Source: an uncultured Methanoregulaceae archaeon
GTDB taxonomy: Archaea; Halobacteriota; Methanomicrobia; Methanomicrobiales; Methanospirillaceae
Assembly (NCBI GenBank): GCA_963737635.1
Contig: CAVTTL010000001.1
Location: 1,984,001-2,048,000 of the forward strand
Reading direction: 5' to 3'
DNA length: 64,000 nucleotides
Shown: positions 10,259 to 60,836 of the stretch, in pieces
Numbering within the stretch: position 1 is the stretch's first letter
How the letters are laid out: the number at the start of each line of letters is the position of its first letter
The notes under the pieces: model-generated
The model's database searches: none
Told to the model about the DNA's origin: nothing
The model's input: the letters and a program-made list of their open reading frames with translations, nothing else
Position numbers and translations under genes: made by a program

Positions 10259-10323
10259 ACCTGATCAGATAGGTTACCGGCAGTACGGTAAATAGTACGT
10301 GGAGACCGGGCCTTTACGGTAAT

Positions 10324-12175: not shown

Positions 12176-12238
12176 GGTCGTTCTTCCCTCCGTTATCTGT
12201 TTATGGACCGGGTGGCCGGAACGGTTATGCAGGCCCGG

Positions 12239-16843: not shown

Positions 16844-19203
16844 CGCTCCTCCGGTGATCCCGGCTTATGCCGACCAAGAAGGGTCGGATCCGGGATGGCT
16901 CGTTCCTTCCAGTCTGCCTGCGAAAGGATACGCATGATATCCCCCTTCAGGGTGACCGGAACGTCGGCTGTAGTACGGATGTACCGAGGAATATCATCCG
17001 GTATCGAACCATGGTGCCTCTGGTACAGGTCGATGTAATGCGTGAGTTTCATCGCCCGGCCCCGGGTCGTATCGTTTGGCCGCATGCAGAGCTTTGCGAC
17101 AAGGACCATTGCTTCTTCTTTAGACTCTGCCGCGACAAAGAGATGCTCCGGCACCGGGCCTGTGTAGACGTTCTCGCCGGTGCGCTGGTCGCATACATAC
17201 CAGTCGGCGTCGTGGTCGGCACGGCCTAAGAGCATTCTGCGGTACTTGCTCCCGTGTGGGCCGACCACCACGGGGATCCCCAGGCGCCAGAACCCGCTCG
17301 CTATCGCCGCCGCCTTCTGGGACATCGCACCCCATGCCACGCCGACTGCACCGACACGGTTGTGGACGTAGTCCGCGATCTCGGCGTAGTTCCCCCTGAG
17401 GTTGCGCCGTGCGAAGATGCTCGCGATCTTGATGGTCGCCCCGGCGATGTGGGCATTTGCAACACAGGAACCGACGTTCACGATCCCTCCGGCGGCAAAA
17501 CTGCCCGGGAACTGTTCGTACGGGGTCTTGCCTTCTTCATCCCGGTACATGCCGATCGACATGGCAGTGCAGCCCGATGTGCAGACAATATACCGGCGCT
17601 TGGCAAACTCGACGCTCATCTCAGCGACCTCTTTCCCCCCGTTCGCGTAATTGGAGCAGCCGACAAATGCCACCACTCCCGGGATCTCGCCGAGCACAAT
17701 GGGCCCACCAACATTGCGGATCTCGATATCCTGAATAGCGCCTCTTCCGGTCCGGATCACAAATCTCTCGTTTTTTATCTTCTCTGCCGCCGCTGCAATA
17801 ATTAATGAATGCACCGGGACATTCTTGGTGCAGGCCTGCTCACACCGGCCGCAACCTACGCAGGTCTCGTAAAGGGCAGAAAGAAGAGAGAAATTCCCAC
17901 TCCCGGCGGCTTTCATGCCCTGTGGGATTGCAAGGTCGTTTGGACACGCCCGCTGGCAGAGCCGGCACTGTGTGCAGGCCGCTGCCTGCTCAAGGATTGT
18001 CTCCGGAGGGATGGCAGCATGAGATTTTCTCCGGGCCGGCATAACAGCCCGGGCGACCCGGACCGCTACCTCCCCAACCTTTTCCGGGTCGAGAATCAAG
18101 ACGCCTTTCTGCTGGCCGCTGATGAGGTCAGCTACAATTGCATCGACAGAATCATCTGTTCTCTCAGGTAGGCCCATGCAGTTCTTTTCGGACGTTGCAA
18201 TAAATGGTGTCCCGGCGGCTGCTGCTTCGGAAAATGAATCGGCCCGGATGCATTGCTCGTCTACAACAATGACATCGGGGATCCCGCTCCGGATGTACCG
18301 GAGCTGCCATGACATGGGGCCGATGATCTTCGCCCTGGACGAATACCGGCTTGCGTCAATTGATGTGCAACAGATACCCGTTATTTCAACTTGGTCGATC
18401 AGGTTCTCCTTAGAGAGGTAATCGATGATAGCGACCGCCGGTGGTACGTTATGGCCGATCACAAGAATGACAGGTTTTGTGGTTTCAACGGTTCCCATCC
18501 CTAAAGCGGCAAGTGGGGCATCGGGGTCGGCTTTCGGGTACCCGAGGGCCGATATCTGTGCGAGATCTGCCACTTCCATACCCACCTGGTCAATCGTACC
18601 GGCATGAAGCACCTTGCTCTCGAAATCGAGAGGATCTCCTTCCTGTCCGGTATGCGTCACCGCAAGAAGAGAGGTGATCTGGCTCTCACAATAATCAAGG
18701 ACGGTCTCGAGATCAGCAAGAGTTTTTGGTCTTTCCCCACAGACGAGCCGGATCACCGGGGCCTCCACCCCGATCGCGTTGCCGCCGGGATCGATGGCAC
18801 AGTCACGGCCGGCACGTTTGATCGCATAAGTCAGGAGTTCCCGAGCATGGCTCGTGTGCGTCGCGGCACCAATGCATGTGGTCAGGAGCACCGTGCGGGC
18901 CTGCTGGGCGGGCATCGTAATCCCACATGCACCTTTTTTTGTGCCGGTCAGATCGCATTTACCATATGTGCATAGGCAGCAAAGATCGCAGAACGGCATA
19001 TAGAACGGTTGGTACCGGGTGAGGAGTCTCCGGTCCCATGCTCGTAGCGTTGCAAGGGAGGGGTACGGGGTCGGACCCTCAGGTTCCGCCCATTCCTCAG
19101 ATGAGAGTTTCCCGATGGAGACCGAAAGATCCCTGATACGGCCAAAACCGGCATCCAGTTCTTTTATCGTAAGCGCGATCTTCTTTTCGGTCAACGGAAG
19201 CAC
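16840..19203 (-). CDS. cdhA: ACDS alpha subunit (CO dehydrogenase)
   Basis: CDLCCLCTYGKC; C-cluster ligands GHN, GICC, DEQC, VGC, SGC, GSC; two extra CxxCxxCxxxC ferredoxin motifs. Confidence 0.97.
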   Translation of the reverse strand: MLPLTEKKIALTIKELDAGFGRIRDLSVSIGKLSSEEWAEPEGPTPYPSLATLRAWDRRLLTRYQPFYMPFCDLCCLCTYGKCDLTGTKKGACGITMPAQQARTVLLTTCIGAATHTSHARELLTYAIKRAGRDCAIDPGGNAIGVEAPVIRLVCGERPKTLADLETVLDYCESQITSLLAVTHTGQEGDPLDFESKVLHAGTIDQVGMEVADLAQISALGYPKADPDAPLAALGMGTVETTKPVILVIGHNVPPAVAIIDYLSKENLIDQVEITGICCTSIDASRYSSRAKIIGPMSWQLRYIRSGIPDVIVVDEQCIRADSFSEAAAAGTPFIATSEKNCMGLPERTDDSVDAIVADLISGQQKGVLILDPEKVGEVAVRVARAVMPARRKSHAAIPPETILEQAAACTQCRLCQRACPNDLAIPQGMKAAGSGNFSLLSALYETCVGCGRCEQACTKNVPVHSLIIAAAAEKIKNERFVIRTGRGAIQDIEIRNVGGPIVLGEIPGVVAFVGCSNYANGGKEVAEMSVEFAKRRYIVCTSGCTAMSIGMYRDEEGKTPYEQFPGSFAAGGIVNVGSCVANAHIAGATIKIASIFARRNLRGNYAEIADYVHNRVGAVGVAWGAMSQKAAAIASGFWRLGIPVVVGPHGSKYRRMLLGRADHDADWYVCDQRTGENVYTGPVPEHLFVAAESKEEAMVLVAKLCMRPNDTTRGRAMKLTHYIDLYQRHHGSIPDDIPRYIRTTADVPVTLKGDIMRILSQADWKERAIPDPTLLGRHKPGSPEER

Positions 19204-28903: not shown

Positions 28904-30826
28904 ATGTTGATTGAAGATCGGCTCAAAGAGCTCAAGGATAAGATTAATGAGCGGGTGCCAGCAGGCATCAAGGTAACTGAGGTTGAATTCGAAGGACCCG
29001 AACTGGTCATCTACACTGATGACCCCAAACGGTTCGCCGACGAAGCCGACCTCATCCGGATCCTTGCCCGCGACCTCCGGAAACGTATTGTCGTCCGTCC
29101 CACCATCCTTGAAGACCCGGAAAAAGCGGCAACAGAAATAAGGGCAGTAGTACCGGAATCTTCTGGCATTACGGACATTTTTTTCGACCCGGATACCGGA
29201 GAAGTCCTCATAGAGGCAGAAAAGCCCGGCGTTGTTATCGGTAAGAACGGGATCACCTTACGGGAGATCACTAAACACATTGGCTGGACACCAAAGGTTG
29301 TCCGCACCCCTCCCATCGAAAGCAGTACCGATAAAGCAGATCCGCCAGTACCTGCGCTCGGTCAACGAGGAACGCAAAATGTTCCTCCGCACCATCGGGC
29401 GAAGGATCCACCGCGACATCCCGGGCCGCGATGACGCAAACAAAGACGCTCCCCGGAAAGACCAATGGGTGCGGGTTACTACTCTTGGGTGCTGTCGCGA
29501 AGTCGGCCGGGCCGCTTTCCTGCTCACCACTCCGGACAGTCGCGTCCTCATCGATTGCGGGGAAAAACCGGACAACTCAAACGGCACTCCCTACCTGTAC
29601 GTACCCGGAAATACACCCTCTTGCCCAGCTCGATGCCGTTGTCCTTACCCACGCGCACCTCGACCACTGTGCACTCATCCCACTCCTCTACAGGTACGGG
29701 TACGAAGGGCCGGTCTATTCGACCCCTCCGACCCGGGATCTCTCCGCGATGCTCCAGCTTGACTACCTGGACGTAATTAATAAGGAAGATCGTAAGATCC
29801 CATACAGTTCCAATGAGGTCAAGACGTACATCCGGCATTCGATTACACTCAATTATGGCAGTGTCACTGACATCGCGCCGGACATCAGGCTCACGTTCCA
29901 TAATGCAGGGCATATTCTGGGATCTGCGATCGCCCATTTCCACATCGGCGATGGTTTATACAACATAGCGTTCACCGGGGACTTCAACTACAGCAAAAGC
30001 CGTCTTTTTAACCCGGCCATCAACCAGTTCCCCCGGCTGGAGGCGCTTTTCATGGAGAGCACCTACGGCGGCTCAAACGACTTTCAGCCACCCCGTTCGG
30101 ATGCTGAGCTCAAGCTGTATGAGACCATTAACAAGGTGCTCTCACGTGGCGGCAAGGTGATCATACCCGCATTTGCTGTTGGCAGGTCTCAGGAAGTCAT
30201 GCTCGCCCTTGAAGAGGGTATGCGTCTTGGCAAGATCCCGCAGGTCAAGATCTACCTCGACGGCATGATCCGCGAGGCAACAGCAATCCACACCACCTAC
30301 CCGGAGTACCTCAATAACGATCTCCGCAACCTGATCTTCCGGGAGGGGATGAATCCCTTCCTCGCTGATTGTTTCCAACAAGTGGACTCTTCCGATCTCC
30401 GGGATAAAGTGATCAACGGCGACCCGTGCGTGATCATATCCACAAGTGGCATGCTCAACGGCGGGCCCGTCATGGAGTACCTGCTTAACCTCGCAGAAGA
30501 TGAGAGAAATGCACTTGTCTTTGTCGGGTACCAGGCAGATGGCACACAGGGACGCCGCATCCAGAAAGGATGGCGCGAGGTACCCCTTGGCCGGAAAAGG
30601 AACTATTACGATAAACCTCGAGATCGACACCATTGACGGGTTCTCGGGGCATTCCGATCGCCGCCAGCTGATGAATTACATTGGCCAGATCCAGCCCCGG
30701 CCTGAGAAAATCTTCTGCATCCACGGTGACGAAAACAATACCATTGACCTTGCCAGCTCCATCTACAAACGCTACCATATCCAGACACATTCGCCGATGA
30801 ATCTTGAGACGTACCGCATGGTATAA
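28904..30826 (+). CDS. fttA: Beta-CASP ribonuclease aCPSF1 (FttA); frameshifts near 29328, 29605 and 30596
   Basis: KH domains, REVGR, THAHLDH, AGHILGS, MESTYG, AVGRSQE, FSGHSDR, HGDE; adjacent to psmB. Confidence 0.95.
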
Positions 30827-30837
30827 CCCGGATATCC

Positions 30838-31928
30838 ATGAAGGCATACCTCTTTGTTGTCTGCCTGGGCGTATTTGCGGTTATGGCCCTCTCCAACGCG
30901 ATTGTCCCGGTGCTGCCCGGCGTTTGCCACCGGCCCTGCGTGGGAAGGTGCCATCTATGCCGCGTATTTTCTGGGGGCGTTTTTATCGACGCTCCCGGGG
31001 GGTATCCTCTCCGATCGATATGGTAGGACACCAATCATCCGTGCGGGCCTCGCGCTCACTGTCGCAAGCGGGGCATTGCTTTTCTCTACCACCGGGCAGC
31101 TGCCGGTACTTGTCCTCCGTTTGGTAGAAGGTGTCGGTGCCGGTCTCTTTATCGCTGCCGGGATGTCGTATGTCAACACGCAGCCTGATCACACCCGCCT
31201 GAGCGGCTATTATCTGGCAATGCTCAATTTCGGGCTCGTTATCGGGCTTGCCGCATCCGGCTGGCTCGCCATCCGGTTTGTGCAGCCTGCTCTCGGAATT
31301 GGCGTCTTTACAGTACTCTCACTTGCAGCTCTGGTTTCAAGTGTTTTTATCGGCGAGACGCTAAGGCCGGTTCATTCACCGGAAGCTCGGTTTCCGGGAA
31401 ACGGGAGAATGTAACAGGGGACTCCAGTTACGGGAGATCGTCGCACTTTCCATCTCCCACTGCCCATTGTGGTATTCCGCAATCATTCTCGTTGGCATTA
31501 CGGGAGCGGTCACCTCGCTGTACCCTTCATTTTCCGGTGAACCTGCGGATGTTCTCGGTCTGTGGATCGCTGGCATGAGCGTGACGACCATTTTCACCGT
31601 CCTTGTCTTCTCCCGGTTTTCGGTCCCGGCACTACCCGCAATCCGGTGGTCGGCGGTGCTCATGATAGGCGGCGTCATCCTGACGTATAAATCCCCGCTC
31701 GGGTTCGTTGTGCTCGGTGCTTTAGCCGGGATCGTTATGGTTGCCCAGATGACCGTCCTTGCCAAGGAGGAGCATCAGGGATGTATCATGGGCCTCTTTT
31801 CGACTTCCAGTTATCTTGGCATGACGATACTTCCTTTTATTGCCGGAATTATTGCTACAGTGGCAGGTTTTTTTGACGCATTCCTTTTTACCGCGATCCT
31901 TGGAGCGACAGTTGCCTTATTGCTGTGA
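30838..31928 (+). CDS. MFS transporter; frameshifts near 30917 and 31393
   Basis: GILSDRYGR motif A, LRLVEGVGAG, about 12 TM helices across frames. Confidence 0.85.
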
Positions 31929-34375: not shown

Positions 34376-34894
34376 TCAGGTTTTTTTCCCTGCGTTTCGC
34401 ATCAGGACAAGCAGGCCGGTGAGGATCTGGAGTGGAGTGGGGGGGGTTCCGGGGATCTTGAGATCAACCGGTAGGATTTTGTCTGCCCCGCCAAGGACCG
34501 CGTACGTCCCGGTATAGATCCCGCCATTGCAGGCATCATCCCCGACAGCTACAACGAATTTGGGAGACGGCATCGCATCGTAAGTCTTTTTTACGGCGGT
34601 AGCCATATTGTGCGTGATCGCGCCGGTCACGATTAAGACATCGGCATGCCGGGGTGAAGCAACGAACGTGATGCCAAACCGCTCTACATCGTAGAATGCA
34701 TTGCTGAGATTATTTACTTCGATCTCGGCAGCATTGTCGCTGCCAGCATCCAGTTCACGGACGGCAAGGCTCCGCCCGAACCGCGTATCGATCTCCTGTT
34801 TTATCTCGCGGCCGAGTCTTTCCATTTCATCTTCCGGTAACGGAAGCGAACCGGTCACTTTCTTTTTTATCAGACAGGAAAATGCATTGACCAT
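34376..34894 (-). CDS. ehrS: NuoB/HyfI-like small subunit (EhrS) with the Fe-S ligands substituted
   Basis: YDVERFGITFVASPRHADVLIVTG, PKFVVAVG, PVDLKIPG identify the family; the cysteine motifs read GSDNAAE, GDDAC and IPGTPP. Confidence 0.9.
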   Translation of the reverse strand: MVNAFSCLIKKKVTGSLPLPEDEMERLGREIKQEIDTRFGRSLAVRELDAGSDNAAEIEVNNLSNAFYDVERFGITFVASPRHADVLIVTGAITHNMATAVKKTYDAMPSPKFVVAVGDDACNGGIYTGTYAVLGGADKILPVDLKIPGTPPTPLQILTGLLVLMRNAGKKT

Positions 34895-34905
34895 CGCGTT
34901 TCACC

Positions 34906-36498
34906 TCATAGGTCTGTCCCGGCGTACGACAGATTCAGGCTCTTGTTGATAACCGGGAAATCGGCAATGATATTGCCGGGTACTGCATGCTCAAGGGTGA
35001 GCCAGTTGCAGTATGAAGCTGTTCTCACCTTGTAACGGCTGATTTTTCCACCCTGTACCTCCACCCAGCAGAGGTTCTGCCCCCGCGGGGACTCTACAAG
35101 CGCGAGCGCACAGCCATCTCGGACAGGTTCGTCGCTGCACATCTGCCCGTCAGGGATAGCGGCGATAACCTGTTCGATCAAGTCGAGTGCATCTAGGATC
35201 TCCGCTGCTTTTACCGTGAACCTGGCAAGGACATCGCCATCGGCCAGGGGCATGAGCGTAGGAACGAAGCGGTCATAAATCCCGTACGGATGGTCCACCC
35301 GAACATCCATCTCGCCACCGGAAGCACGAGCAACCGGGCCGGTGATATTGAGGGGGGCAAGCAGCGGTTTTTTGATGATCCCGGTCTGCGCGAACCGGTC
35401 GATCACCGAGGTTGTCGAGAGCACGATGGAAAGCCCGGTCCTGAACTGTTTTTTGAACCGTCTAAGATAATTCTTAAAACCGGTTAGGGTTACGGCCGGG
35501 ATATCCCGCGTGACCCCGCCCGGACAGATCATTCCCCGTAGGAACCGGGAGCCGGAAAGCTTCGCGTTCTCGCGCAACATCTCCTCGCGCAACACGGCAA
35601 ACTGGCTGGCACCAAGAGCAAATGCGACGTCGGTCAGCATGCCTGCCAGATCGCCGAGGTGGGAACAGATCCTTTCGGACTCGCAGAGGACCGTCCGGAT
35701 GTGCCAAGCGCGTTCAGGCACGGTGATCCCGGAGAGTCGTTCGACTGCCATGCAAAACCCCGTCGCATTTGCCGCTGATTCGTCTCCGCTGACCGCTTCT
35801 GCGATCTTCGTGCAGTCCATTGGAGCCTTCCCTTCTGCCAGTTTCTCGATCCCCCGGTGAGTATAGAACAGGCGGACCTCGAGGTTGAAGACCGTCTCCC
35901 CGATCACGCTGAACCGGAAGTGACCGGGCTCGATGATGCCGGCATGGACCGGCCCGACCGGGACCTGATAGACGCCGTCGCCGCTCACGTTCCGGAACTG
36001 GTAGAAATCAGACGCGTTGATCGTTTTTACCGGGGTAACTGGCGCATTGGCGCATCCCTTTTCCAGCGGGTGAAACATATCAGGATATTCCTCATGCAGG
36101 ACGAGTCGCCGGGTGTCAAACGCGCCGTCGAATTCGATCCCGAACATGTCCCGGCATTCCCGTTCCGGCCATGTAGCCGAAGGAAAGACCGCGGCAATGG
36201 AGGTCGCCTGTTTTCCGGTAATATTCCGGACAAGGACGAGGATGCTGTCGTGGTGTTCGAAAACATACCGGAGCACATGCTCTTCGCCGCCAGTACCTTC
36301 AGAACAAAACAATCCGATCAGGACCCATTTCTGTGCAGTAAGAATGGGGATGGCTTGGCCAAATTCCTGTTTATTGACGTTGACGGAATACTCCCCGCTG
36401 CATCCATACGTAATCCGGGCTGGCGTAGCGGCACTACCAAAAATTTCCCGGACTGCTGCAGTGGCGGCATCTTCCCCGGTGATTTCAGTCTGGGTCAT
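34906..36498 (-). CDS. ehrL: NuoCD/HyfG-like large subunit lacking NiFe motifs (EhrL)
   Basis: ERECRDMFG, GPVHAGIIEPGHFRF, YTHRGIEK, VESPRG, IIADFPVINKSLNLSYAGTDL; no RxCxxC or DPCxxC. Confidence 0.92.
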   Translation of the reverse strand: MTQTEITGEDAATAAVREIFGSAATPARITYGCSGEYSVNVNKQEFGQAIPILTAQKWVLIGLFCSEGTGGEEHVLRYVFEHHDSILVLVRNITGKQATSIAAVFPSATWPERECRDMFGIEFDGAFDTRRLVLHEEYPDMFHPLEKGCANAPVTPVKTINASDFYQFRNVSGDGVYQVPVGPVHAGIIEPGHFRFSVIGETVFNLEVRLFYTHRGIEKLAEGKAPMDCTKIAEAVSGDESAANATGFCMAVERLSGITVPERAWHIRTVLCESERICSHLGDLAGMLTDVAFALGASQFAVLREEMLRENAKLSGSRFLRGMICPGGVTRDIPAVTLTGFKNYLRRFKKQFRTGLSIVLSTTSVIDRFAQTGIIKKPLLAPLNITGPVARASGGEMDVRVDHPYGIYDRFVPTLMPLADGDVLARFTVKAAEILDALDLIEQVIAAIPDGQMCSDEPVRDGCALALVESPRGQNLCWVEVQGGKISRYKVRTASYCNWLTLEHAVPGNIIADFPVINKSLNLSYAGTDL

Positions 36499-37979
36499 CA
36501 GAACCTCAACTCCGTAACTATCTGGGAGAGAAAAGCAGATCCTCCGGCAGGGAACATAAGCCCGAGTACAAGAACGAGGGCAAGCAGGATCACAATCGGG
36601 ATCTGCATGGAGAGCGGTGTCCGGTAAGGAACTAGTTCAGGGTTTTCGTCCGGTGGTGTGGTGCGGGTAAACATGCTGATAACGAAGTTCCCGAGGGCGG
36701 CAGCGGCTATCAAGATGAGGATGAGGACAACCGTAAGCACCCAGAGTGAAAGCGATCCGAGAGAGAGCAGGATGAGGAATTTTGAGAAAAAGGCCATAAA
36801 GGGTGGCATACCGATGATCGCGAGCCCTCCGAGGATGATCCCCCATGCCGCGAACGGCTGGAACCGGAACACGTCGTGGATGTCATCAGGGGCATCGGCA
36901 GAAATATGACTCCGGTATTGCCGGTGCAGGATACCGGCTGAGAAGAAGAGCGAGGCTTTCGTGAGGGCGTGCGCGATAACCTGGAAAAGTACCCAGAAGA
37001 TCGCAACCGGTGTAGCGACAGCAATGCCAACCAGGATGATACCCATGTTCTCGATACTTGAAAATGCGATTAGTTTCTTGAGATTCTTTTCAGGCAGCAT
37101 GGAGAACGCGGCAATGGCAATCGAGAAGATGCCAAAGAGCAGGATTGCCGGGGCAACTACGGCCGAAGCATCAGTCTGGTGGACAATGGCAAATACCCGG
37201 ATTATACCGTAGATCCCTATGTTCAGGAGCACTCCTGAGAGGACTGCACTCACCGCAGAGGGCGCCTTGGCATGGGCCTCGGGAAGCCATGTATGGAACG
37301 GGAAGATGCCGGACTTTGCGGCAAACCCGATAAAGATGAACATAAAGGCGGCGATCATCATTACAGGGGGGAATGCAGAGGCATGCTGCATCAGGGCTGT
37401 CCAGTTGAGGGTACCGTCGCCAAGCGTGGAACGAGAGATTTCAAAGAGGAAGATAAGCCCGACAAAGGCGAAGATCATAGCCACCGATGCAACGAAGATG
37501 TACTTGAGCGCCGCGTCGATATTCTCCTTCGCCGAGAGTATCGCGATAAGCATCGCCGATATGATCGTTGTCATCTCAGCAAAGATCCAGAAGAGCGCCA
37601 GATTGTCCGAGAAAAAAGCAAGAACAATGACCAGTTCGAGCAGGCACCACGCGGCATAGAAGAGCTTCAGGCTCCCCTGTTCCAGCTCCCTGTTTGCAAG
37701 CAGATTGCTGATATAGCCCCGGGCATACACGGCAGCGAGTAAGAAAATGAAGGTTGCAACCAGCACTTCCAAGAGGCCGAGGTGGTCGATGAAAAAGTAC
37801 CCGCTGCCTACAATGAAAGTGTTGACAGGGATTTGCACGAACAGGAGAATGTACAGGGTGATCGCTAAGTAAATGATCCCCTGCCCGGCGGCGGCCGCAT
37901 TCATCTGCTGGTTTGTGTGGCTGAGGGCGACAAGAATGATCGCAACGAGGGCGCAGGCCACAAAGGCGATGAGAATCAT
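36498..37979 (-). CDS. hyfF: Antiporter-like membrane subunit (HyfF/EhrD, MrpD/NuoN-like)
   Basis: FWIFAEMTT, AALKY, KSGIFPFHTWLPEAHAKAP, AFSSIEN, FFSKF. Confidence 0.9.
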   Translation of the reverse strand: MILIAFVACALVAIILVALSHTNQQMNAAAAGQGIIYLAITLYILLFVQIPVNTFIVGSGYFFIDHLGLLEVLVATFIFLLAAVYARGYISNLLANRELEQGSLKLFYAAWCLLELVIVLAFFSDNLALFWIFAEMTTIISAMLIAILSAKENIDAALKYIFVASVAMIFAFVGLIFLFEISRSTLGDGTLNWTALMQHASAFPPVMMIAAFMFIFIGFAAKSGIFPFHTWLPEAHAKAPSAVSAVLSGVLLNIGIYGIIRVFAIVHQTDASAVVAPAILLFGIFSIAIAAFSMLPEKNLKKLIAFSSIENMGIILVGIAVATPVAIFWVLFQVIAHALTKASLFFSAGILHRQYRSHISADAPDDIHDVFRFQPFAAWGIILGGLAIIGMPPFMAFFSKFLILLSLGSLSLWVLTVVLILILIAAAALGNFVISMFTRTTPPDENPELVPYRTPLSMQIPIVILLALVLVLGLMFPAGGSAFLSQIVTELRF

Positions 37980-38668
37980 GGGGACACCTCCTGCTCTTCC
38001 CAGAGGTAGAACCGGTGGAGCCGGTTATGGTACTCCTCGAGCGTCGAATCAATCCCGACGGTAAGGATGGTCGTCAGGATGATAAGGATGACCAGATCGA
38101 TGACGATCAGGAACTCGATGATGAACGGGAGCTCGGTTACAAAGATGCCAAAGAGGAGGACGCCGTTTTCCATCGAGAGGTATCCCAGCACTTTCGTGAT
38201 CGCCCTTTTCCGTGAGAAGGTCACCATCATGCCCATCAGGACAAGAGAGACCCCAATCACCGCCCCAAAGAAAAAGAGGCTTCCGTTTATCGTTGTATCC
38301 GGGATGATACGGGAGAGGGTGATGTAGACGACGATCATTAGCGCAAGCGAGATCAGAAGCGAACTCGTCGGGCTGAGGAAATGGAAGTCGATATCGCGTT
38401 TTATCCGGATCTTCTCCTGGATGGTCGCAATGAAGTACGGTATCAGGCACACTTTGAAGACCAGCGTGAGGATCGCAATGGCAAGGAGGATCGGCTCATT
38501 CTCGTACCACGCGACGCCAAGAGCGATAATAACGAGAGTAAGCGACTGGAGCGCGTAGACCCTGACCAGACTGATGAGGTTCTTTGTTGTGATGATATAC
38601 GCCGACGTAACGATCACGCAGACGAACAGGATCTTGACGATCCCATCAAAAAATGCAGGGTCGATCAT
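37976..38668 (-). CDS. hyfE: HyfE/EhrC membrane subunit
   Basis: YALQSL, FKVCLIP, VLGYLSMENGV, PFIIE; position in the operon. Confidence 0.88.
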   Translation of the reverse strand: MIDPAFFDGIVKILFVCVIVTSAYIITTKNLISLVRVYALQSLTLVIIALGVAWYENEPILLAIAILTLVFKVCLIPYFIATIQEKIRIKRDIDFHFLSPTSSLLISLALMIVVYITLSRIIPDTTINGSLFFFGAVIGVSLVLMGMMVTFSRKRAITKVLGYLSMENGVLLFGIFVTELPFIIEFLIVIDLVILIILTTILTVGIDSTLEEYHNRLHRFYLWEEQEVSP

Positions 38669-39606
38669 GCGAACACCTCGATGATGATGATAAGGGTAGA
38701 GAAGAAGAACGCCATCATAAAGAGGCTTGGCAGCCGGAAGAACCGCATCTTTGCCATGGATGACTCAAAGAGCCCCATCACAAGGGCAAGAAGGGCAGCT
38801 TTTCCGATAAAGAGAACAAAGGCGGCGGCAATAGTGGCAGGAGTGAGTGTGGTGGCGATCCCCCATGGGATGATAAGGTTGATGAGCAGTCCCATCAGGA
38901 TTACCTGTTTTATGGCAGACGAGAGTTCGAGGAGTGCAAGATTCCGGCCCGATTGTTCGAGGATCATGCCTTCGTGGATCATGGTCAGCTCGAGATGGGT
39001 CTCCGGGTTATCGACCGGGATGCGTGCGGTCTCAACGATCAGGATAATAAAAAGAGAGATTCCAAGCAATATCAGTACCGGGGTCACCGGGGTACCGGTT
39101 GTAGCCGCCACCGTGGCCATATCGATGATATTGAGGGATTTAAAGACAAATGCGAGTGCGGCAAAGACAATAATCGTAGTTGGTTCGATGACCGCCGCGA
39201 TGCTCATCTCCCGGGAGCTGCCCATACCGCCGAATGTGCTCCCTGCATCGAGGCCGCCCAGCGCCATGAAGAACCGGGCGAGCACCAGCAGGTACAAGAA
39301 GAGGATAATATTTCCGATGCCTCCAGCCGGCTCCGTGACATAGACGAGCGGGACAAAGAGCGAGGCAGTAAGGATGGCAGCGATGCAGACCCACGGTGTA
39401 ATCCTTGTGATCCGGGATGCATTGGGGGAATAGATCACTTCCTTTTTGAGGAGCTTCGCGAGCGTGTAATAGGTCTGGAAAATCGATGGCCCCTGCCGCC
39501 CCTGTGTCCACGCTTTGACCTTCTTTACCAGGCTCACGAAGAGCGGCGCAATAAGAACGACACTGACGGTGTTGATGATACCGTACAGCAGGAACTCCGG
39601 GATCAT
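38665..39606 (-). CDS. hyfC: NuoH-like membrane subunit (HyfC/EhrB)
   Basis: QGRQGPSIFQTY..LAKLLKKE, GGMGSSRE, ETARIPVDNPETHLELTMIHE. Confidence 0.92.
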   Translation of the reverse strand: MIPEFLLYGIINTVSVVLIAPLFVSLVKKVKAWTQGRQGPSIFQTYYTLAKLLKKEVIYSPNASRITRITPWVCIAAILTASLFVPLVYVTEPAGGIGNIILFLYLLVLARFFMALGGLDAGSTFGGMGSSREMSIAAVIEPTTIIVFAALAFVFKSLNIIDMATVAATTGTPVTPVLILLGISLFIILIVETARIPVDNPETHLELTMIHEGMILEQSGRNLALLELSSAIKQVILMGLLINLIIPWGIATTLTPATIAAAFVLFIGKAALLALVMGLFESSMAKMRFFRLPSLFMMAFFFSTLIIIIEVFA

Positions 39607-41552
39607 GCGAGTACCCCCAGGAAGAGGATGACGGCGACCACGGCAAGGAAGACATACAGAAGGTAGGTGTCAAGGCACCCGTTCTGCATGCGGGCAACCA
39701 AACCGGCAGCACGGCACGTTCCCCGTGCAACCGGGAGGTAGAGGTACTCCTCGAAGAACTTTACCAGCCGGATCTCTGCTGTTCCCTCAGCAAAGATGCA
39801 TTCGTGCTGGTCGTAGTATGTTTTGGTGCTCGTCTTTTTGGTCCGGTAGATGGAAGAAAAGATTGTAACAATCGGCTCCGAGAACCCGTGTCCGGTATAC
39901 TCGGTCGAGGAGGGCAGCGACCGCGCACCGCATCCCCAGGTTTCGCTGATCCTGACCTCGTGGGATGCGGTAAAATACAGGACAACGTACGTGAGCGCTG
40001 CCATGAAAAGGAGCAGCATGCTCACGAGAAGAAGGTCGGGGATGGGAAGCACATAGCCGAACGCGGTGAGGATCTGGTACGAGAAGACCCCCAGAATGAC
40101 ACACGCGGCGGCAAGGATGGCCGGGCCGGCAAGCATCGAAAGGCCGACCTCGTGGGCTTCCTCACACTCCGGTGACCGCGACCGGGCGAGGAAGATGGAG
40201 CCAAAGGCCTTCACAAAGCAGGCAGCAGAAAGGGCACTGGTGAGCGCAAAGAGGGCAAGACAGATGAACAGGAGTATTTTTATGAGTGGGTCGACCATGG
40301 AGACGGACTCAAAGAACGCCGTGTAGACCAGCAGTTCGCTGGCAAAACCGTTGAGCGGCGGGAGCGCGGCAATGGCAGCAGCTCCGGTAAAAAAGAGGGC
40401 GGAGGTAACGGGCATCTTGCCGGAAAGGCCGCCCATCTTCTCGATGTCGCGGGTGTGTGTGGCGTGCACTACTGAGCCGGCCGTGAGGAAGAGGAGGCTT
40501 TTGAAGAGCGCATGGTTGAGAGAGTGGAAGAGCGCGGCAAGCAGGCTGATGGTTGCAAGCAGGGGAAGTCCCGCGCAGGAGAAGATTACATACAGACCAA
40601 TGCCCACAAAGATGATGCCGATATTCTCGATGCTTGAGTACGCAAGGAGCCCCTTGATGTCGTCTTCCTTGATTGCGTAGATCACGCCGAGCACAGCCGA
40701 CGCAATACCGGCGATAAGGATCAGGACACCCCACCAGAGATCCGGCGAGAACACCGTGATAATAAACCGGAGGAGACCATAGACGGCGACCTTGAGCATC
40801 ACGCCGGACATGAGCGCCGAGACGGGCGTGGGACTTGCCGGATGGGCGTACGGGAGCCACTTGTGAAACGGAATGATCCCGGCCTTGATGGCAAAGCCGA
40901 TAAAAAGCGAGAGAAACGCGACCGTGACCAGAGGCATCGACACAGCGGGAAGATGCACCGGGGCGATCGCAAACGAACCGGAAGCGACAAAAAGGGCAAT
41001 GATCCCGAGCATTACAAAGAGGGTCGAGAGCTGGGTCATCACGAAATAGAAGATCCCGGCTTTCCGTGTCTCGGCGTGTGTATACTCGTACATCACGAGG
41101 AAAAAGGAGACCACTGCCATAAGCTCCCAGAACACGAGAAACGAGATCGTGTTTTCCGAGGCAACCACAAGCACCATGGCGAGCACGAAGAGACCGATGC
41201 AGCCGCAGAGAAGGTTGCGACGGCTCCCGCCCTCCATATGCTCAACGTACCCGGTGCTGTAGACCGCGACACAGGCTGCAACGATCCCTATGAGGAACAG
41301 GAAGAACGCGGCGAGCCGGTCGATAAAAAATGCTACCGCGATCCCCGGGAAGGGCTGCCAGGCGGTAAAAGCAAGAGACGTGCCGGTGACCAGGATAATG
41401 AGCGAGAGCACCGTAAGAAGCGCCGAGGCAGCCGCAATACAGGCAAGCGAGAGAGTGCGTGAGGTCCGGCTGTCCCGCGTCGCTCCCAAAAGGGCGATGA
41501 CCGCGCCGGCAAGGAAAAAGATGACGACAATCCCAAAGATCAGGCCGAGCAT
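39603..41552 (-). CDS. hyfB: Antiporter-like membrane subunit (HyfB/EhrA, MrpA/NuoL-like)
   Basis: FWELM, KAGIIPFHKWLPYAHP, GVMLK, LAYSSIEN, NHALFK, LPPLNGFASE, WGCG. Confidence 0.92.
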   Translation of the reverse strand: MLGLIFGIVVIFFLAGAVIALLGATRDSRTSRTLSLACIAAASALLTVLSLIILVTGTSLAFTAWQPFPGIAVAFFIDRLAAFFLFLIGIVAACVAVYSTGYVEHMEGGSRRNLLCGCIGLFVLAMVLVVASENTISFLVFWELMAVVSFFLVMYEYTHAETRKAGIFYFVMTQLSTLFVMLGIIALFVASGSFAIAPVHLPAVSMPLVTVAFLSLFIGFAIKAGIIPFHKWLPYAHPASPTPVSALMSGVMLKVAVYGLLRFIITVFSPDLWWGVLILIAGIASAVLGVIYAIKEDDIKGLLAYSSIENIGIIFVGIGLYVIFSCAGLPLLATISLLAALFHSLNHALFKSLLFLTAGSVVHATHTRDIEKMGGLSGKMPVTSALFFTGAAAIAALPPLNGFASELLVYTAFFESVSMVDPLIKILLFICLALFALTSALSAACFVKAFGSIFLARSRSPECEEAHEVGLSMLAGPAILAAACVILGVFSYQILTAFGYVLPIPDLLLVSMLLLFMAALTYVVLYFTASHEVRISETWGCGARSLPSSTEYTGHGFSEPIVTIFSSIYRTKKTSTKTYYDQHECIFAEGTAEIRLVKFFEEYLYLPVARGTCRAAGLVARMQNGCLDTYLLYVFLAVVAVILFLGVLA

Positions 41553-41567
41553 GAAGGCACATCCCCG

Positions 41568-42185
41568 TTATGCATCCCGGTCTCCCGGGAGAGGAGTGGG
41601 GTCGCGCTTCATGGGACAGCTCCCCGAATAATTGGCTGTGCCCTGCCCGGGCCGGATCGTCACCGGAATCTCGGGGGCCGGGACAAAACCCATCTCCCGG
41701 TAGAAGTCAACCAGTTCCGGCTTCGCATGCAGGTACAGCATCTCGTGCCGGCCGCACTCCTCGATCAGCCGTCTCATGACCAGGCGGGCAAATCCCCGGT
41801 GCCGGTACTCTTCGAGGACATAAACGCCGTCTACTTCAAAGCTATCTAGATGCCGGGAACACCGGGCAACACCGACTAACTGGGTACCAGCAAATGCCGC
41901 AAACAGCCGGTCTGTCGCAGTATCTGCTTTCTGCTGGTTATCGTGGATCCAGAGTTCTTCTTCGGCACGACGCATCTCGTGCGCCGGGAGTTCCCTGACC
42001 TCGACGCTGAGCACGGCCGGGTGGTCTATAAACGCGTGCCCAAACGTAAGAAGCTGCTTCCGGATCCGGCGGAAGATGCGTGGTTGCAAGGTGACAAACT
42101 CCCCGCATTCCTCACCTGCAAGCGCATAGAGTGTAAGCAGGGTCGCATCTTCCCCAGTGGGTTCTTGGTGTATTGCTGATGACAA
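41568..42185 (-). CDS. GNAT family N-acetyltransferase
   Basis: VYVLEEYRHRGFA acetyl-CoA motif A; FYREMGF. Confidence 0.85.
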   Translation of the reverse strand: MSSAIHQEPTGEDATLLTLYALAGEECGEFVTLQPRIFRRIRKQLLTFGHAFIDHPAVLSVEVRELPAHEMRRAEEELWIHDNQQKADTATDRLFAAFAGTQLVGVARCSRHLDSFEVDGVYVLEEYRHRGFARLVMRRLIEECGRHEMLYLHAKPELVDFYREMGFVPAPEIPVTIRPGQGTANYSGSCPMKRDPTPLPGDRDA

Positions 42186-42407
42186 TGCAGACGTATATGC
42201 ATTCTCCTTGTGTAGTATTGCGTGGTCCTGAAAGGGTTTTTTAGTGTCTCCTGTCCCCAGCCAGCACGGAGATAAGAGTTTTCATACGTTTTCCCCTGAT
42301 CCTGCTTATAGGTTACGTCCGGCGGGCTGATATCCGCGGTCTCGTGATCACCCGGTTACACCAAGGAAACTTTATGGTTTATTACCTGCCGGCGTCAATC
42401 TTCGGGT

Positions 42408-42968
42408 ATGACCATTGAATCTGATGCAGTAAAAGACGTTGCCGGCCTCATGGCGCTTGCCGCCCGGACGGCACCGAAAGCCTGCGGCCTTGACTCGATC
42501 AAGATCGAGATCGTAACCGGGAAAGAACAGAAAGAGCTCGGTGATCTTATGATCGCCGAGGCAAAAACGACCGGCATGGATTTCCTCAGGATCAACGGGG
42601 AACAGGTAAAGGCAAGTGACGCCTCGGTCCTTATCGGGGTCGAAGGTCGAAAGACACTCGGCATCAACTGCGGCGGGTGTGGGTATGCGACCTGCGCAGA
42701 GATGGCAGCAGCGCAGAAAACCAAGAAGAACAAGGGCTCTGCCTATGCGGGCCCGAATTGCGTGCTCAAGATCTCGGATCTGGGTATCGCTGTCGGCTCA
42801 GCCGTCAAGACCGCTGCTATCCACAATGTCGACAACCGGATCATGTTCACCGAAGGTTATGTCGCCCTCAAAGCCGGGTACCTGAAAGGATGCAGCGTTG
42901 CCTACGGGATTCCTCTCCGGGCATCGGGCAAGAGCATCTACTTTGATATCCAGTTCCCCAAGCACTGA
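42408..42968 (+). CDS. DUF2148 ferredoxin-domain protein
   Basis: AARTAPKA.G, NCGGCGYATC, GPNC, DLGIAVGSA, VDNRIM. Confidence 0.85.
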   Translation: MTIESDAVKDVAGLMALAARTAPKACGLDSIKIEIVTGKEQKELGDLMIAEAKTTGMDFLRINGEQVKASDASVLIGVEGRKTLGINCGGCGYATCAEMAAAQKTKKNKGSAYAGPNCVLKISDLGIAVGSAVKTAAIHNVDNRIMFTEGYVALKAGYLKGCSVAYGIPLRASGKSIYFDIQFPKH

Positions 42969-43011
42969 TACCATCCTCTTTTATTTTCTTCACGACATGT
43001 ATGCTGATTTT

Positions 43012-43797
43012 TTAGGTAACCATTTCTTTCCATTTCGGGTTCTCCCACATAATATTGAAGGCATTATTGATCGCCTTAGTTACCATATCATTTGCAATCC
43101 AAAGTGCGATCAGGTTTTCGCGGTGTGCTGCTTCCGCTTCAGGAAGAGGGAGCATCATGAGCATTTCCCTGCTATCGATGGTCAGGGTCCGGATGAACGG
43201 TTCCGGAGCGATCTGGATATCGCTTGTCACCTTCGAAAAGGATGCGTACACATCCACGATCTCCTCTTTTATCCGCGCCGGGTTGTTCGACGATATCCGG
43301 ATGATGACCCCCCGCCGCCTGGCGGCACCGATCAGCTGTTTCATCCTTTCAAGCTCCTCCGGGTAATAAAGCGTGCCGAACAAGTAGAGGCTTGTCCGGG
43401 CCCTCTTCATCATATCTGCCGTCTTGACACCGATGTTGTCGATGCCGCGGATGATATGGGCCTCGGGTGGGTCCGCCTCCATGCGTTTCTCATAATGCAT
43501 GGTAAACTCGTCTGCCATCCTGTCGATCTCGGCATCGAATGCGGATTTCCGGTCACCGATTGCCTGGCTGGGACAGACCGGCGATATTTTTGCCGGCCTC
43601 CCTTTCTCGACCCTGATCCAGTCCTGCTTTTCGAGCCTTTTCAGGGTCTCGTAGATCTTTGTCCGGGGAATGCCCGCCTCTTCTGCAAGGGTAAAGGGGG
43701 TGGTGGTACCGATCCGCACCAGCGCTTCGTACGCCTTTGCATCGTAAGTCGTCAGCCCGAGCGTCTGCAGGAGGGCAATAGACTTGGAATCGTTCAT
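43012..43797 (-). CDS. TrmB family transcriptional regulator
   Basis: LGLTTYDAKAY..AGIPRTKIYETLKRL HTH plus C-terminal effector domain. Confidence 0.9.
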   Translation of the reverse strand: MNDSKSIALLQTLGLTTYDAKAYEALVRIGTTTPFTLAEEAGIPRTKIYETLKRLEKQDWIRVEKGRPAKISPVCPSQAIGDRKSAFDAEIDRMADEFTMHYEKRMEADPPEAHIIRGIDNIGVKTADMMKRARTSLYLFGTLYYPEELERMKQLIGAARRRGVIIRISSNNPARIKEEIVDVYASFSKVTSDIQIAPEPFIRTLTIDSREMLMMLPLPEAEAAHRENLIALWIANDMVTKAINNAFNIMWENPKWKEMVT

Positions 43798-43889
43798 AAT
43801 AGGTTCTATGACATTTCCCCGTATATAAGTTACAAAAACATTATCCCTCCTGCACGCAATTCACGCGTGTTAACAAAGGAGACCTGCAT

Positions 43890-44327
43890 ATGTCAACTGT
43901 TGAAGAGAACATGCGTCTCATGCAGACGCTGGACGACGCCTGGAATGCACAGGACTGGGCCACCTTCGAAAAACGCCACGCAGCACAGGTCGATGTCTTC
44001 TGGCCGGGGCAGGAAAAACCGACCCATGGCCGGCCGCCCCACAAGGAAGAAGCGATCGCCTTTTTCAAAGCCTTCCCGGACAACAAGGTCGGGAATCGTC
44101 CCTACAAGACCCTGTTCGGGCAGGGAGACTGGACCTGTTCGGTTGCCGACTTTACCGGTACTTTCAAAGGCCCGATGACCGGACCGGATGGAAATGTGAT
44201 CCAGCCGACCGGAAAGAAGTTCAAAGTCGAGTTCTGCACGGTCGCCCACTGGAAGAACGGGGAGATTACCGAAGAGAAACTCTTCTATGACAAGATCCTG
44301 CTGATGCAGCAGATAGGCCTGATGTAA
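43890..44327 (+). CDS. SnoaL-like ester cyclase / NTF2-fold protein
   Basis: FFKAFPD, FTGTFKGPM..PTGKKF..WKNGEITEE..YD..LMQQIG. Confidence 0.88.
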   Translation: MSTVEENMRLMQTLDDAWNAQDWATFEKRHAAQVDVFWPGQEKPTHGRPPHKEEAIAFFKAFPDNKVGNRPYKTLFGQGDWTCSVADFTGTFKGPMTGPDGNVIQPTGKKFKVEFCTVAHWKNGEITEEKLFYDKILLMQQIGLM

Positions 44328-44431
44328 AAACAGCAGTCGCGTCAGCCCGGACCCGGGCGAAAGATGAGATACCTATCCGGGGGTATATCTTCGTATGATA
44401 GTTAACCGGTAATCAAGGACATACGCTAACT

Positions 44432-45133
44432 ATGAAAGAACAGACCAGGAAAATACCGGAATCAGCCAGTGATTCCATGAAGATCACAGTGAGCACAAAC
44501 GGCCCGTATATTGTCACGGGCGGCGTCCCGCTCATCCGGATGGAGATCTGCAACGATGACGAGGGTTACTGCCGTACTTGGCGGGAAGTAAAGAGGTATC
44601 CAGTGCAGGAGACCTATGCCCTCTGCCGGTGCGGCCACTCGCAACACAAGCCGTTCTGTGACGGGTCGCACGCAAGGATCGCCTTTAATGGCACCGAAAC
44701 TGCCGGGAATGAACCGTACCTCAAGTACCCGGAGATCATCTCCGGCCCGGAACTGGATCTGCATGATTATGAGGGCCTCTGCGTTCATGCCCGGTTCTGC
44801 ATGAGGGCCGGCGGGATCTGGAACCTTACCAAAGTCTCGGATATCCCAGAGGCGAGGGCTACCGCTATAGAAGAGGCATGCAACTGCCCGTCAGGACGAC
44901 TGGTGATCAGGGACCGGAAGACCGGCACGATCATCGAGCCGGAACTGGAAAAGTCGATTGCCGTTATTGAGTACCCTCCCAAGGGAGAGCATGGCCCGCT
45001 CTGGGTCCGGGGCGGTATACCCGTTGTGTCTGCTGATGGTAAACAGTACATTGTCAGGAACCGGCTCACGCTCTGCCGGTGCGGGAAGTCGGAGAACAAG
45101 CCGTTCTGCGACGGGAGCCATATCGAGCAGTGA
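44432..45133 (+). CDS. CDGSH iron-sulfur protein (CDGSH, divergent 4Fe-4S domain, CDGSH)
   Basis: LCRCGHSQHKPFCDGSH, CVHARFC..CPSGRL, LCRCGKSENKPFCDGSH. Confidence 0.93.
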   Translation: MKEQTRKIPESASDSMKITVSTNGPYIVTGGVPLIRMEICNDDEGYCRTWREVKRYPVQETYALCRCGHSQHKPFCDGSHARIAFNGTETAGNEPYLKYPEIISGPELDLHDYEGLCVHARFCMRAGGIWNLTKVSDIPEARATAIEEACNCPSGRLVIRDRKTGTIIEPELEKSIAVIEYPPKGEHGPLWVRGGIPVVSADGKQYIVRNRLTLCRCGKSENKPFCDGSHIEQ

Positions 45134-45176
45134 GAGCGGGCGGACAGAGAACGAGATTAGAGAGGGAATGAAACGT

Positions 45177-45590
45177 ATGAGTTTTGTCGAAGTTGCAAAG
45201 ACAAGCGAGATTCCTGCCGGGACCATGAAACACATTGAAGCCGACGGGAAAGAGATATGTATCGCGAATGTCAGCGGGAAATTCTATGCTATCGGTGACC
45301 GTTGTGGTCACGAGAATGCCAGACTCTCCCGGGGCACCCTCATGGACACTATTGTGACCTGCCCCATGCATTCTTCACAGTTTGACGTAACCACCGGGAA
45401 ACTGATGTCCGGGCCGGTCTTGGAACTTAGTGGGCTCAAGGAAATGTTTACCGGCTGCCCTGAAAAAGTGAAAAAAACGGTGGCGCAAATGTTTGAAGGT
45501 ATTGCCGAAGAGCAGCGCCTGATCAAGACGTACGATCAACCAGTTTATGAAGTGAAGGTCGATGGCAACGACGTGCTTGTCCAACTTTAA
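45177..45590 (+). CDS. Rieske [2Fe-2S] ferredoxin, copy 1
   Basis: CGH..CPMHSSQFDVTTG..GP; start MSFVEVAK. Confidence 0.9.
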   Translation: MSFVEVAKTSEIPAGTMKHIEADGKEICIANVSGKFYAIGDRCGHENARLSRGTLMDTIVTCPMHSSQFDVTTGKLMSGPVLELSGLKEMFTGCPEKVKKTVAQMFEGIAEEQRLIKTYDQPVYEVKVDGNDVLVQL

Positions 45591-45678
45591 ATTTTTGGAT
45601 GTGAAAAAACATGAAAGAAATTATTGGCAAATTAAATGATGTAGCGGAAATCATGAAAAAATCAGCTGGGGTTCAGGT

Positions 45679-46323
45679 ATGACAGGAGAGGAGTGCGTTG
45701 GTTTTCCGGTTCTGGGAGAACCTGCCCCGGATTTTGAAGCAGAAACGACTCAGGGTCCGATCAAACTATCAGACCAGAAGGGGAAATGGGTGGTGCTATT
45801 TTCTCATCCCGCCGATTTCACCCCGGTCTGTACAACCGAATTCATGGCGTTCGCCGCGATTCATGATGAACTTGCAGCGCTCAACGTGAAATTGATCGGG
45901 CTATCTGTCGACAGCGTATCGGCACACCTAGCATGGGTACACAATATCAAGGAAAAGATGGGTGTTGTCATCCCGTTCCCGGTCATTGCTGACCTGAACA
46001 TGAAAGTGGCAAAGAAATACGGTATGATCCACCCGGGCCAGAGCTCGACTACAGCAGTCAGGTGCGTGTTCTTCATCGATGACAAGGGGATCATGCGGGC
46101 GATGATCTACTATCCCCTGCAGAACGGGCGGTTCATGCCAGAAATCGTCAGGCTCGTAAAAGCGCTCCAAACGACCGACAAATACAAGGTGTCGACGCCC
46201 GCCAACTGGCAGCAGGGCGACAAGGTTGTCGTGGCCCCCCCAAAGACCTCGGCCGAGATGGACAAGCGCTTAAGCGAGGGATACGAGTGCAAAGACTGGT
46301 ATCTCTGTTTCAAAAGCATATGA
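45679..46323 (+). CDS. Peroxiredoxin (archaeal Prx6-type)
   Basis: SHPADFTPVCTTEF, YYP..GR, TPANW, C-terminal CKDWYLC. Confidence 0.95.
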   Translation: MTGEECVGFPVLGEPAPDFEAETTQGPIKLSDQKGKWVVLFSHPADFTPVCTTEFMAFAAIHDELAALNVKLIGLSVDSVSAHLAWVHNIKEKMGVVIPFPVIADLNMKVAKKYGMIHPGQSSTTAVRCVFFIDDKGIMRAMIYYPLQNGRFMPEIVRLVKALQTTDKYKVSTPANWQQGDKVVVAPPKTSAEMDKRLSEGYECKDWYLCFKSI

Positions 46324-58371: not shown

Positions 58372-58390
58372 ACCGAGATAAAAAGGAATG

Positions 58391-60834: not shown

Positions 60835-60836
60835 AA

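Follow-up and report, generated by a model that had tools for sequence, protein, structure and literature searches.

We analysed a 64,000-nucleotide stretch of DNA, hereafter the window, from an uncultured Methanoregulaceae archaeon (assembly GCA_963737635.1, contig CAVTTL010000001.1, positions 1,984,001 to 2,048,000). Positions 34376-41552 of the window carry, on the minus strand, the ehrABCDLS operon of a Methanoregula, intact and with translational coupling between its genes; Methanoregula is the name borne by the closest protein relatives in NCBI and JGI. The host genome is 2.46 Mb and 90% complete. The operon opens with ehrA (39603..41552), which encodes a 649-aa antiporter-type subunit like HyfB, HycC and NuoL, with matches to PF00361 (Proton_antipo_M) at 8e-59 and to NF006418 at 970 bits (cut-off 794); its best solved relatives were HycC (7z0s_C), MbhH and MrpA. 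EhrB (38665..39606, 313 aa) is a HycD/NuoH-like subunit that matched PF00146 (NADHdh) at 2.5e-35 and aligned with HycD (7z0s_D) at 5e-40. EhrC (37976..38668, 230 aa) is a HyfE-like small membrane subunit, for which the similarity was weak (NCBIfam HyfE NF008556, 8e-17; 62 bits, which falls short of the 136 cut-off) and the Pfam scan gave no match. EhrD (36498..37979, 493 aa) is a second antiporter-type subunit, like HyfF and NuoM-N (PF00361, 3e-50; NF006427, 707 bits, cut-off 511). EhrL (34906..36498, 530 aa) is a NuoC+NuoD-type fusion like HycE, with Complex1_49kDa at 6e-39 and Complex1_30kDa at 1e-15, and EhrS (34376..34894, 172 aa) is a NuoB/HycG-like subunit (Oxidored_q6, 2e-26). As a preliminary description of the locus had stated, the six open reading frames (ORFs) are free of frameshifts and coupled by overlapping stops and starts. 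The A/B, B/C and C/D junctions are ATGA overlaps, D/L is a TGATG overlap, and L and S are separated by an 11-nt gap with GGTGA inside. That description gave the six ehr genes correctly and missed a seventh: a GNAT acetyltransferase gene (41568..42185, minus strand; Pfam Acetyltransf_1/10/7), with an N-terminal extension of about 57 residues, ends 16 bp before the start of ehrA. It is the probable first gene of a seven-gene cluster, GNAT + ehrABCDLS. Public labels on the proteins of the window were 'Ni,Fe-hydrogenase III small subunit', 'NuoB' and 'hydrogenase membrane subunit', so that the mislabelling expected from automated pipelines was indeed found.

The preliminary description also held that the nickel-iron (NiFe) motifs of the large subunit were replaced and that the small subunit had no cluster ligands left. 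Alignments bear out both. When EhrL was aligned with E. coli HycE (7z0s_E), RVCGICGFAH was replaced by EAVSGDESAA and DPCYSCTD by NLSYAGTD, and alignment with a true archaeal hydrogenase, L053, likewise showed both NiFe CxxC motifs to be gone. All four NiFe cysteines are replaced (C to S237, C to E240, C to S524 and C to G527). The former L1 motif, AEAVSGDES (35776-35802, minus strand), departs from the group 4 [NiFe] L1 pattern RxCGxCxxxH, and the former L2 motif, NKSLNLSYAGTDL (34909-34947, minus strand), from the L2 pattern DPCxxCxxH/R. In EhrS, the [4Fe-4S] ligand positions, as set by NDUFS7 and Cys-intact archaeal relatives, are occupied by D53, A56, D120 and T150. The former cluster-ligand stretches, all on the minus strand, read GSDNAAE (34724-34744), GDDAC (34529-34543) and PGTPP (34439-34453). 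The sole cysteine of EhrS, C122, lies two residues past the third ligand position and is no ligand; Cys-intact relatives share it (GSCAC). No 2x[4Fe-4S] subunit of the NuoI/HycF/EchF type was found as an ORF or as a Pfam Fer4 match among the six ehr genes and the GNAT gene, in line with the earlier remark that the operon has no NuoI-like ferredoxin gene. Two other NuoB-type genes occur in the genome, FrhG inside frhADGB and EchC inside ech. Since both sit in Frh or Ech operons, no orphan Cys-intact EhrS paralogue of the kind that the preliminary description had considered was seen in the 90%-complete assembly.

We searched for EhrL across 400 genomes of the phylum and counted as clear orthologs matches with E<1e-100 and at least 44% identity. 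Their distribution was patchy: they occurred in 9 of the 11 other Methanoregula, in a few other Methanomicrobiales, in many f7 genomes and in families f17, f14, f30 and f34. Beyond the orthologs, the next-best matches came from ordinary subunits of Ech, Eha or Fpo and reached no more than 240 bits. For 20 related loci, the 20-kb surroundings were taken. Fourteen of these loci form clade I together with the window, five form clade II (L048-L052), and one, L053, is the hydrogenase used above. The gene order ehrA-B-C-D-L-S was kept in all 20 loci, across several families. L053 carries RVCGICGFAH and DPCYSCTE, and an FdhH-like gene, a 4Fe-4S protein gene and FocA lie beside it; because of these intact NiFe motifs and these neighbours, we regard it as a formate hydrogenlyase. 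In clade II, EhrL lacks the NiFe cysteines (SGDN, NKS[LF][NS]LSYSGND) and EhrS retains all four iron-sulfur (FeS) cysteines. In clade I, both ligand sets were gone at 15/15 loci and no ferredoxin subunit was present. On the EhrL tree (533 columns), clade I received a support of 100/100. Its stem is long, at 1.32 changes per site, as would suit a shift in function. The Ehr complex of the window descends from formate-hydrogenlyase-type enzymes. Two clade II loci, L050 (8376-9122) and L051 (10847-11590), encode an EhrS with an N-terminally fused 2x[4Fe-4S] ferredoxin domain, and their downstream genes encode a universal stress protein, a formate/nitrite transporter (FocA) and a molybdopterin oxidoreductase of 700-740 aa. 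This is a formate dehydrogenase (FDH)-Ehr arrangement in archaea. In two other clade II loci, L048 (2198-6409) and L049 (13779-18024), two EhrA-like genes stand in tandem.

The residues that took the place of the cysteines in clade I are strongly conserved. In EhrS, D53 and D119 were present in 15/15 rows and D120 in 14/15, the remaining one having Glu, while the mean majority fraction of the protein was 0.77. Position 150 was Asn in 13 rows, Thr in one (the window) and Asp in one. In EhrL, where the mean majority fraction was 0.67, D239 and E240 were present in 15/15 rows and S237 in 13/15; taken with S524 and G527, these residues were kept in 13-15 of the 15 rows. At EhrS positions 53, 119, 120 and 150, the residues of clade II are Cys, Ser/Ala, Cys and Cys, and its EhrL has Asn at position 240. 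Compared with the FeS-keeping clade II, clade I has gained D53, D119 and D120 in EhrS and has Glu instead of Asn at EhrL position 240. In clade I, the predicted loss of the FeS cluster is accompanied by four newly acquired carboxylates around the former metal sites. All six genes of the operon are under purifying selection, as the ratio of nonsynonymous to synonymous substitution rates (dN/dS) was 0.06-0.15 in comparisons with the two nearest species; with two further species, for which dS was near saturation, it was 0.11-0.19. With such values, the operon is not decaying.

EhrS was also searched for among 1.84 billion representative sequences, which gave 6778 matches. The best 150 were taken, and 130 full-length rows, the window included, were classed by the cysteines at the four ligand positions: 92 had 4/4, 12 had three, 3 had two, and 23 had one or none. 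In 18 of these 23 Cys-poor proteins, at least two of the four ligand positions were Asp or Glu. On a quick EhrS tree (126 columns, weakly resolved), the Cys-less state required at least six changes, at least three of them forced by well-supported branches. The acidic residues of the 18 proteins and the forced changes on the tree indicate that FeS loss with acidic replacement has recurred. Ten Cys-less EhrS clusters were looked up, and the two with organism names came from Chloroflexota and Dehalococcoidia.

Pfam and NCBIfam matches, gene order and the missing NiFe ligands all agree with the preliminary assignment of the locus to the Ehr type. Ehr complexes are reportedly defined, by Coppi in 2005 and Marreiros et al. 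in 2013, as sets of group 4-homologous subunits (ehrA-D, L and S) in which the large subunit lacks the CxxC pairs. A further comparison can be made with the hydrogenases themselves. For four of the Ehr subunits, the best solved relatives belong to formate hydrogenlyase of E. coli (Hyc, PDB 7Z0S), with HycE at 3e-71, HycC at 3e-68, HycD at 5e-40 and HycG at 2e-30, and MBH and Mrp come next. In hydrogenase-4, the counterparts of the six genes are HyfB, C, E, F, G and I. Unlike these group 4a enzymes, the Ehr of the window has no NiFe site, no FeS chain (HycB/F, HyfA/H), no FdhF and no HyfD. Going by the residues at its former active site, the Ehr complex of the window cannot make or use H2. In methanogens, Anderson et al. 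2009 (PMC2686161) described large subunits without NiFe cysteines for the M. hungatei operon Mhun_1817-1822 and for the homologous genes of M. acetivorans and M. mazei, and Gunsalus et al. 2016 (PMC4704411) gave the operon the name ehrABCDLS. PMC10284858, PMC4378227, PMC10432482, PMC7304191 and PMC5037454 call the function of Ehr unknown. The family is already named, and NiFe-less methanogen Ehr has been in print since 2009. As far as the accessible texts go, the named Ehr of M. hungatei, Methanosarcina and Geobacter have the same six subunits in the same order and a large subunit without NiFe cysteines. These texts mention the NiFe ligands only, whereas the EhrS of the window also lacks the four FeS ligands and has conserved carboxylates instead. 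In Methanomicrobiales, a GNAT gene moreover accompanies the operon. In the accessible literature, which excluded Marreiros et al. 2013, no text on cluster loss from the small subunit was found. The present analysis adds the FeS-less form as one clade, the carboxylate replacement, the purifying selection on all six genes, the linkage to the GNAT gene and the lack of a fluoride riboswitch before the operon.

We then considered the membrane part of the complex. The charged residues of EhrA, EhrD and EhrB presumably form an ion pathway, by analogy with published structures of complex I, the membrane-bound hydrogenase MBH and Mrp. In EhrA, the Glu of transmembrane helix (TM) 5, the Lys of TM7 and the Glu of TM12 were present in 23/23 rows, and the TM8 Lys in 22/23. 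EhrD keeps the TM5 Glu and the TM7 Lys, and also the TM12 Lys, which is Glu in clade II. The acidic loop motifs that EhrB has in common with HycD are retained. All the motifs quoted in the preliminary description, including the acidic NuoH loop and the large-subunit loops, were present in the window. Mrp antiporters (PDB 6Z16, 7QRU, 7D3U) and the MBH arm (6CFW) have MrpA/D-like subunits with the same TM5 Glu, TM7 Lys and TM12 Lys/Glu. The proposed mode would also be that of Mrp, ion exchange without redox chemistry; Mrp, however, lacks the NuoH/NuoB/NuoD-type cap that Ehr has. MrpB, C, E, F and G families had no match among the six Ehr proteins, the genome not having been searched separately for them, and DabA (PF10070) had none among the operon and neighbour proteins scanned. 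Genome-wide, PF00361 genes were limited to ehrA, ehrD and echA, and hence the genome is without Mrp or Fpo. Complex I and Fpo share NuoB, C, D, H and L/M/N homologs with the window, where the beta1-beta2 loop GPxH..EPGHF is kept. They comprise at least 11 subunits, among them NuoA, I, J and K, whereas the Ehr of the window has six only, without N2 ligands, NuoI, N-module or FpoF.

The explanation to which we lean, tentatively and with slightly less than even confidence, is that clade I Ehr is a redox-independent ion translocator gated by its carboxylate cluster. The complex would no longer pass electrons. H+ or Na+ would move through EhrA, EhrD and EhrB, and this movement would be gated or set off as a cation or proton binds to, and leaves, the carboxylates that replace the metal centres, at the junction of EhrS, EhrL and EhrB. 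EhrS D53, D119 and D120 and EhrL D239 and E240 would make up the cluster. Ehr would in effect be a Mrp-like secondary antiporter or an ion-gated device with a cap, and in Methanomicrobiales a dedicated GNAT would serve as its accessory partner. In favour of this explanation are the complete, clade-wide loss of ligands, the purifying selection with the kept gene order, the conserved acidic replacements and their recurrence in other lineages, the charged residues retained in the membrane subunits, the lack of a shared redox partner around clade I and the long stem of that clade.

Several observations weigh against such an ion translocator. Because Mrp antiporters work without a NuoB/D-like cap, antiport alone does not explain why EhrL and EhrS were kept. 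The carboxylates could have a purely structural role, standing in for the negative charge that went with the cluster. The preliminary description had the charged residues of the antiporter-like subunits as retained, which held for EhrA and for TM5, TM7 and TM12 of EhrD and failed for TM8 of EhrD. There, the Lys is replaced by Asn in the window (N253 region, VLSGVLLNIGIYG, within 36498-37979, minus strand) and in 19/19 Ehr loci examined, and it is Lys in L053, the sole true hydrogenase compared. The loss of this central Lys from EhrD may have changed one of the complex's two putative channels. Na+/H+ exchangers of the PF00999 family were found in 31/31 Methanoregula genomes searched, and Ehr in only 34 of the 60 other Methanoregula, so Ehr would be an accessory function and not the main antiporter of the cell. 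Genes for an Fe-S protein (DUF2148) and a CDGSH protein lie divergently upstream of the operon, though only in the two nearest relatives. Finally, as the genome is 90% complete, a trans-encoded partner could escape view.

How the cap is coupled to the membrane arm is a long-standing question in the complex I superfamily, and a natural, conserved member free of redox centres with a cap and a full path would be a clean test case. It would also complete a comparison series running from true formate hydrogenlyase through FeS-containing, FDH-linked Ehr to FeS-free Ehr with carboxylates. Knock-outs, metal analysis and flux assays should be feasible, since the clade occurs in f7 genomes and, according to the accessible literature, in the tractable M. 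acetivorans and M. mazei. The finding also bears on annotation, since metabolic reconstructions of methanogens routinely enter these genes as hydrogenase or NuoB.

To define GNAT orthologs, we required full-length matches of at least 140 bits, paralogs reaching no more than 110 bits. Among 60 other Methanoregula genomes, 34 had EhrL and 31 a full-length GNAT ortholog. All 31 GNAT-positive genomes were Ehr-positive, and none of the 26 Ehr-negative genomes had the GNAT. The three Ehr-positive genomes without it had completeness values of 73, 94 and 75%. In at least 23 genomes the GNAT gene lay directly upstream of ehrA, and where it lies 150-290 kb away it has been kept all the same. A profile search of 150 Methanomicrobiales and the genome of the window (G000) gave full-length matches in 17 genomes, which belong to three families and without exception carry EhrL. 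The gene adjoins ehrA in G465 (C85), G519 (C1) and G537 (C30), and also in L034, L035 and L043. Its dN/dS was 0.18-0.20. As kin are not independent, these counts overstate the linkage statistically. In one genome (G141) Ehr was present and GNAT paralogs only were found, not the ortholog, and none of five Ehr-carrying genomes outside Methanomicrobiales gave a GNAT match. For these two reasons, what the GNAT does cannot be the central function of clade I. Its linkage to Ehr offers a first candidate partner for the complex. The fold is generic (ElaA, GCN5, RimI), and NCBIfam, a PDB sequence search and Foldseek returned generic GNAT relatives only. About 57 residues at the N-terminus are strongly conserved and yet were modelled as disordered (pLDDT below 50). 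A complex prediction of GNAT with EhrL and EhrS gave a score of 0.11, with the mark at 0.32.

These data bear on a first alternative, in which the membrane arm is run in reverse: ion flow would drive a non-redox event at the pocket that once held NiFe/FeS, for instance signalling, catalysis or the binding of a ligand, or would be driven by such an event. The GNAT would be the cytoplasmic partner and could, for example, let membrane energisation control protein acetylation. The restriction of the GNAT ortholog to Ehr-carrying genomes, its place upstream of ehrA in three families and its retention at a distance all speak for this, as do the nearly invariant ex-active-site motifs of EhrL and the N-terminus of the GNAT, docking segments being often disordered in the same way. 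The generic GNAT fold, however, gives no substrate, co-inheritance among kin inflates the association, and the GNAT was not found in the five Ehr-carrying genomes outside Methanomicrobiales nor in G141; on balance we hold this alternative to be rather unlikely. In a bolder reading, to which we give an equally low weight, clade I Ehr might be a new class of energy converter without redox cofactor, whose carboxylate pocket would bind a cation or small ligand in a manner coupled to ion flow. In Methanomicrobiales, an acetyltransferase dedicated to the complex would then tie acetylation to the energisation of the membrane. If this is so, the recurrent, independent loss of the FeS cluster would show that non-redox chemistry can power the coupling machinery in the complex I superfamily.

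A second alternative is that the complex is still a redox enzyme, fed with electrons by a trans-encoded partner (ferredoxin, Fdh or the DUF2148 Fe-S protein) or through a cofactor not ligated by Cys, such as flavin, F420 or a metal on Asp/Glu/His. Published work expects Ehr to couple cytoplasmic redox reactions to ion translocation, and FDH-Ehr complexes have been proposed for Margulisbacteria and Saganbacteria (PMC6349859). Ehr subunits of Geobacter sulfurreducens (GSU0739-45) rise on formate (PMC7894505), and the locus tags given in PMC4704411 place the M. hungatei ehr genes close to fdh and to a formate transporter gene, with only a few genes between. Clade II is linked to FDH and FocA, and DUF2148 and CDGSH genes lie near the operon of the window. 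Clade II shares with the window an EhrL without NiFe ligands and the same membrane module; it differs in keeping the four FeS cysteines and, in L050 and L051, in the fused ferredoxin, FocA and molybdopterin oxidoreductase, none of which is found in the window clade. Clade I has no electron wire, the four [4Fe-4S] and four NiFe ligands being gone from every locus along with any ferredoxin subunit, and the FeS loss recurred in other lineages. The survey of Cys-less EhrS loci and their neighbours that the preliminary description had suggested gave variable neighbours for clade I, namely an alpha/beta-hydrolase with a molybdopterin-binding oxidoreductase, a methyltransferase with FilR1, RibD_C and TauE. 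No conserved redox partner was found beside clade I loci when 73 flanking ORFs of clades I and II and the formate hydrogenlyase outgroup were scanned. A surviving redox function is in our opinion distinctly unlikely.

Thirdly, Ehr could be a device against fluoride or weak-acid stress, an idea suggested by the bacterial 'formate hydrogen lyase'/Ehr operons that are controlled by fluoride riboswitches. The preliminary description had included fluoride among the shifts worth following, and this link found no support at the operon: a gathering scan found no RF01734 in the window, no match was seen at E<=10 in 41300-42600, where the operon starts, and there was none in the 8 scanned of the 20 related archaeal loci. 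The one RF01734 match of the genome (49 bits) precedes two tandem crcB genes (G000:C1:2116526-2117439), about 69 kb past the window end. We consider the fluoride explanation very unlikely. That the operon is a decaying hydrogenase relic without function is scarcely credible, since its loss of all cofactor ligands and its patchiness within the genus are set against intact frames, coupled junctions, dN/dS of 0.06-0.19, synteny across families and invariant replacement residues.

The genes divergent from the cluster occupy 42408-46323 on the plus strand and form a group for redox and oxidative-stress functions: a DUF2148 Fe-S protein (42408-42968, 223 bp from the GNAT gene), a 426-aa ORF without family, a CDGSH+Fer4_19 protein and a peroxiredoxin. 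Among the related loci, only L034 and L035 have them next to ehr, and they were rejected as conserved partners. Downstream of ehrS, on the same strand, an alpha/beta-hydrolase gene is found in three Methanoregula species (L036, 12369-13907; L037, 7120-8653; L038, 8300-9079), and in two of these loci a gene for a sulfite-oxidase-type molybdopterin-binding protein follows it. Elsewhere, the genes for FttA (KH domains plus beta-CASP; window 28904-30636) and for a major facilitator superfamily transporter (30854-31928), as well as echA (G000:C1:897847-898703), each appear to be split into two overlapping or adjacent frames, which suggests frameshift or indel errors in the assembly. The G+C content of window positions 10001-18000 and 58001-62000 was 0.59-0.61, compared with 0.47-0.55 across much of the window.

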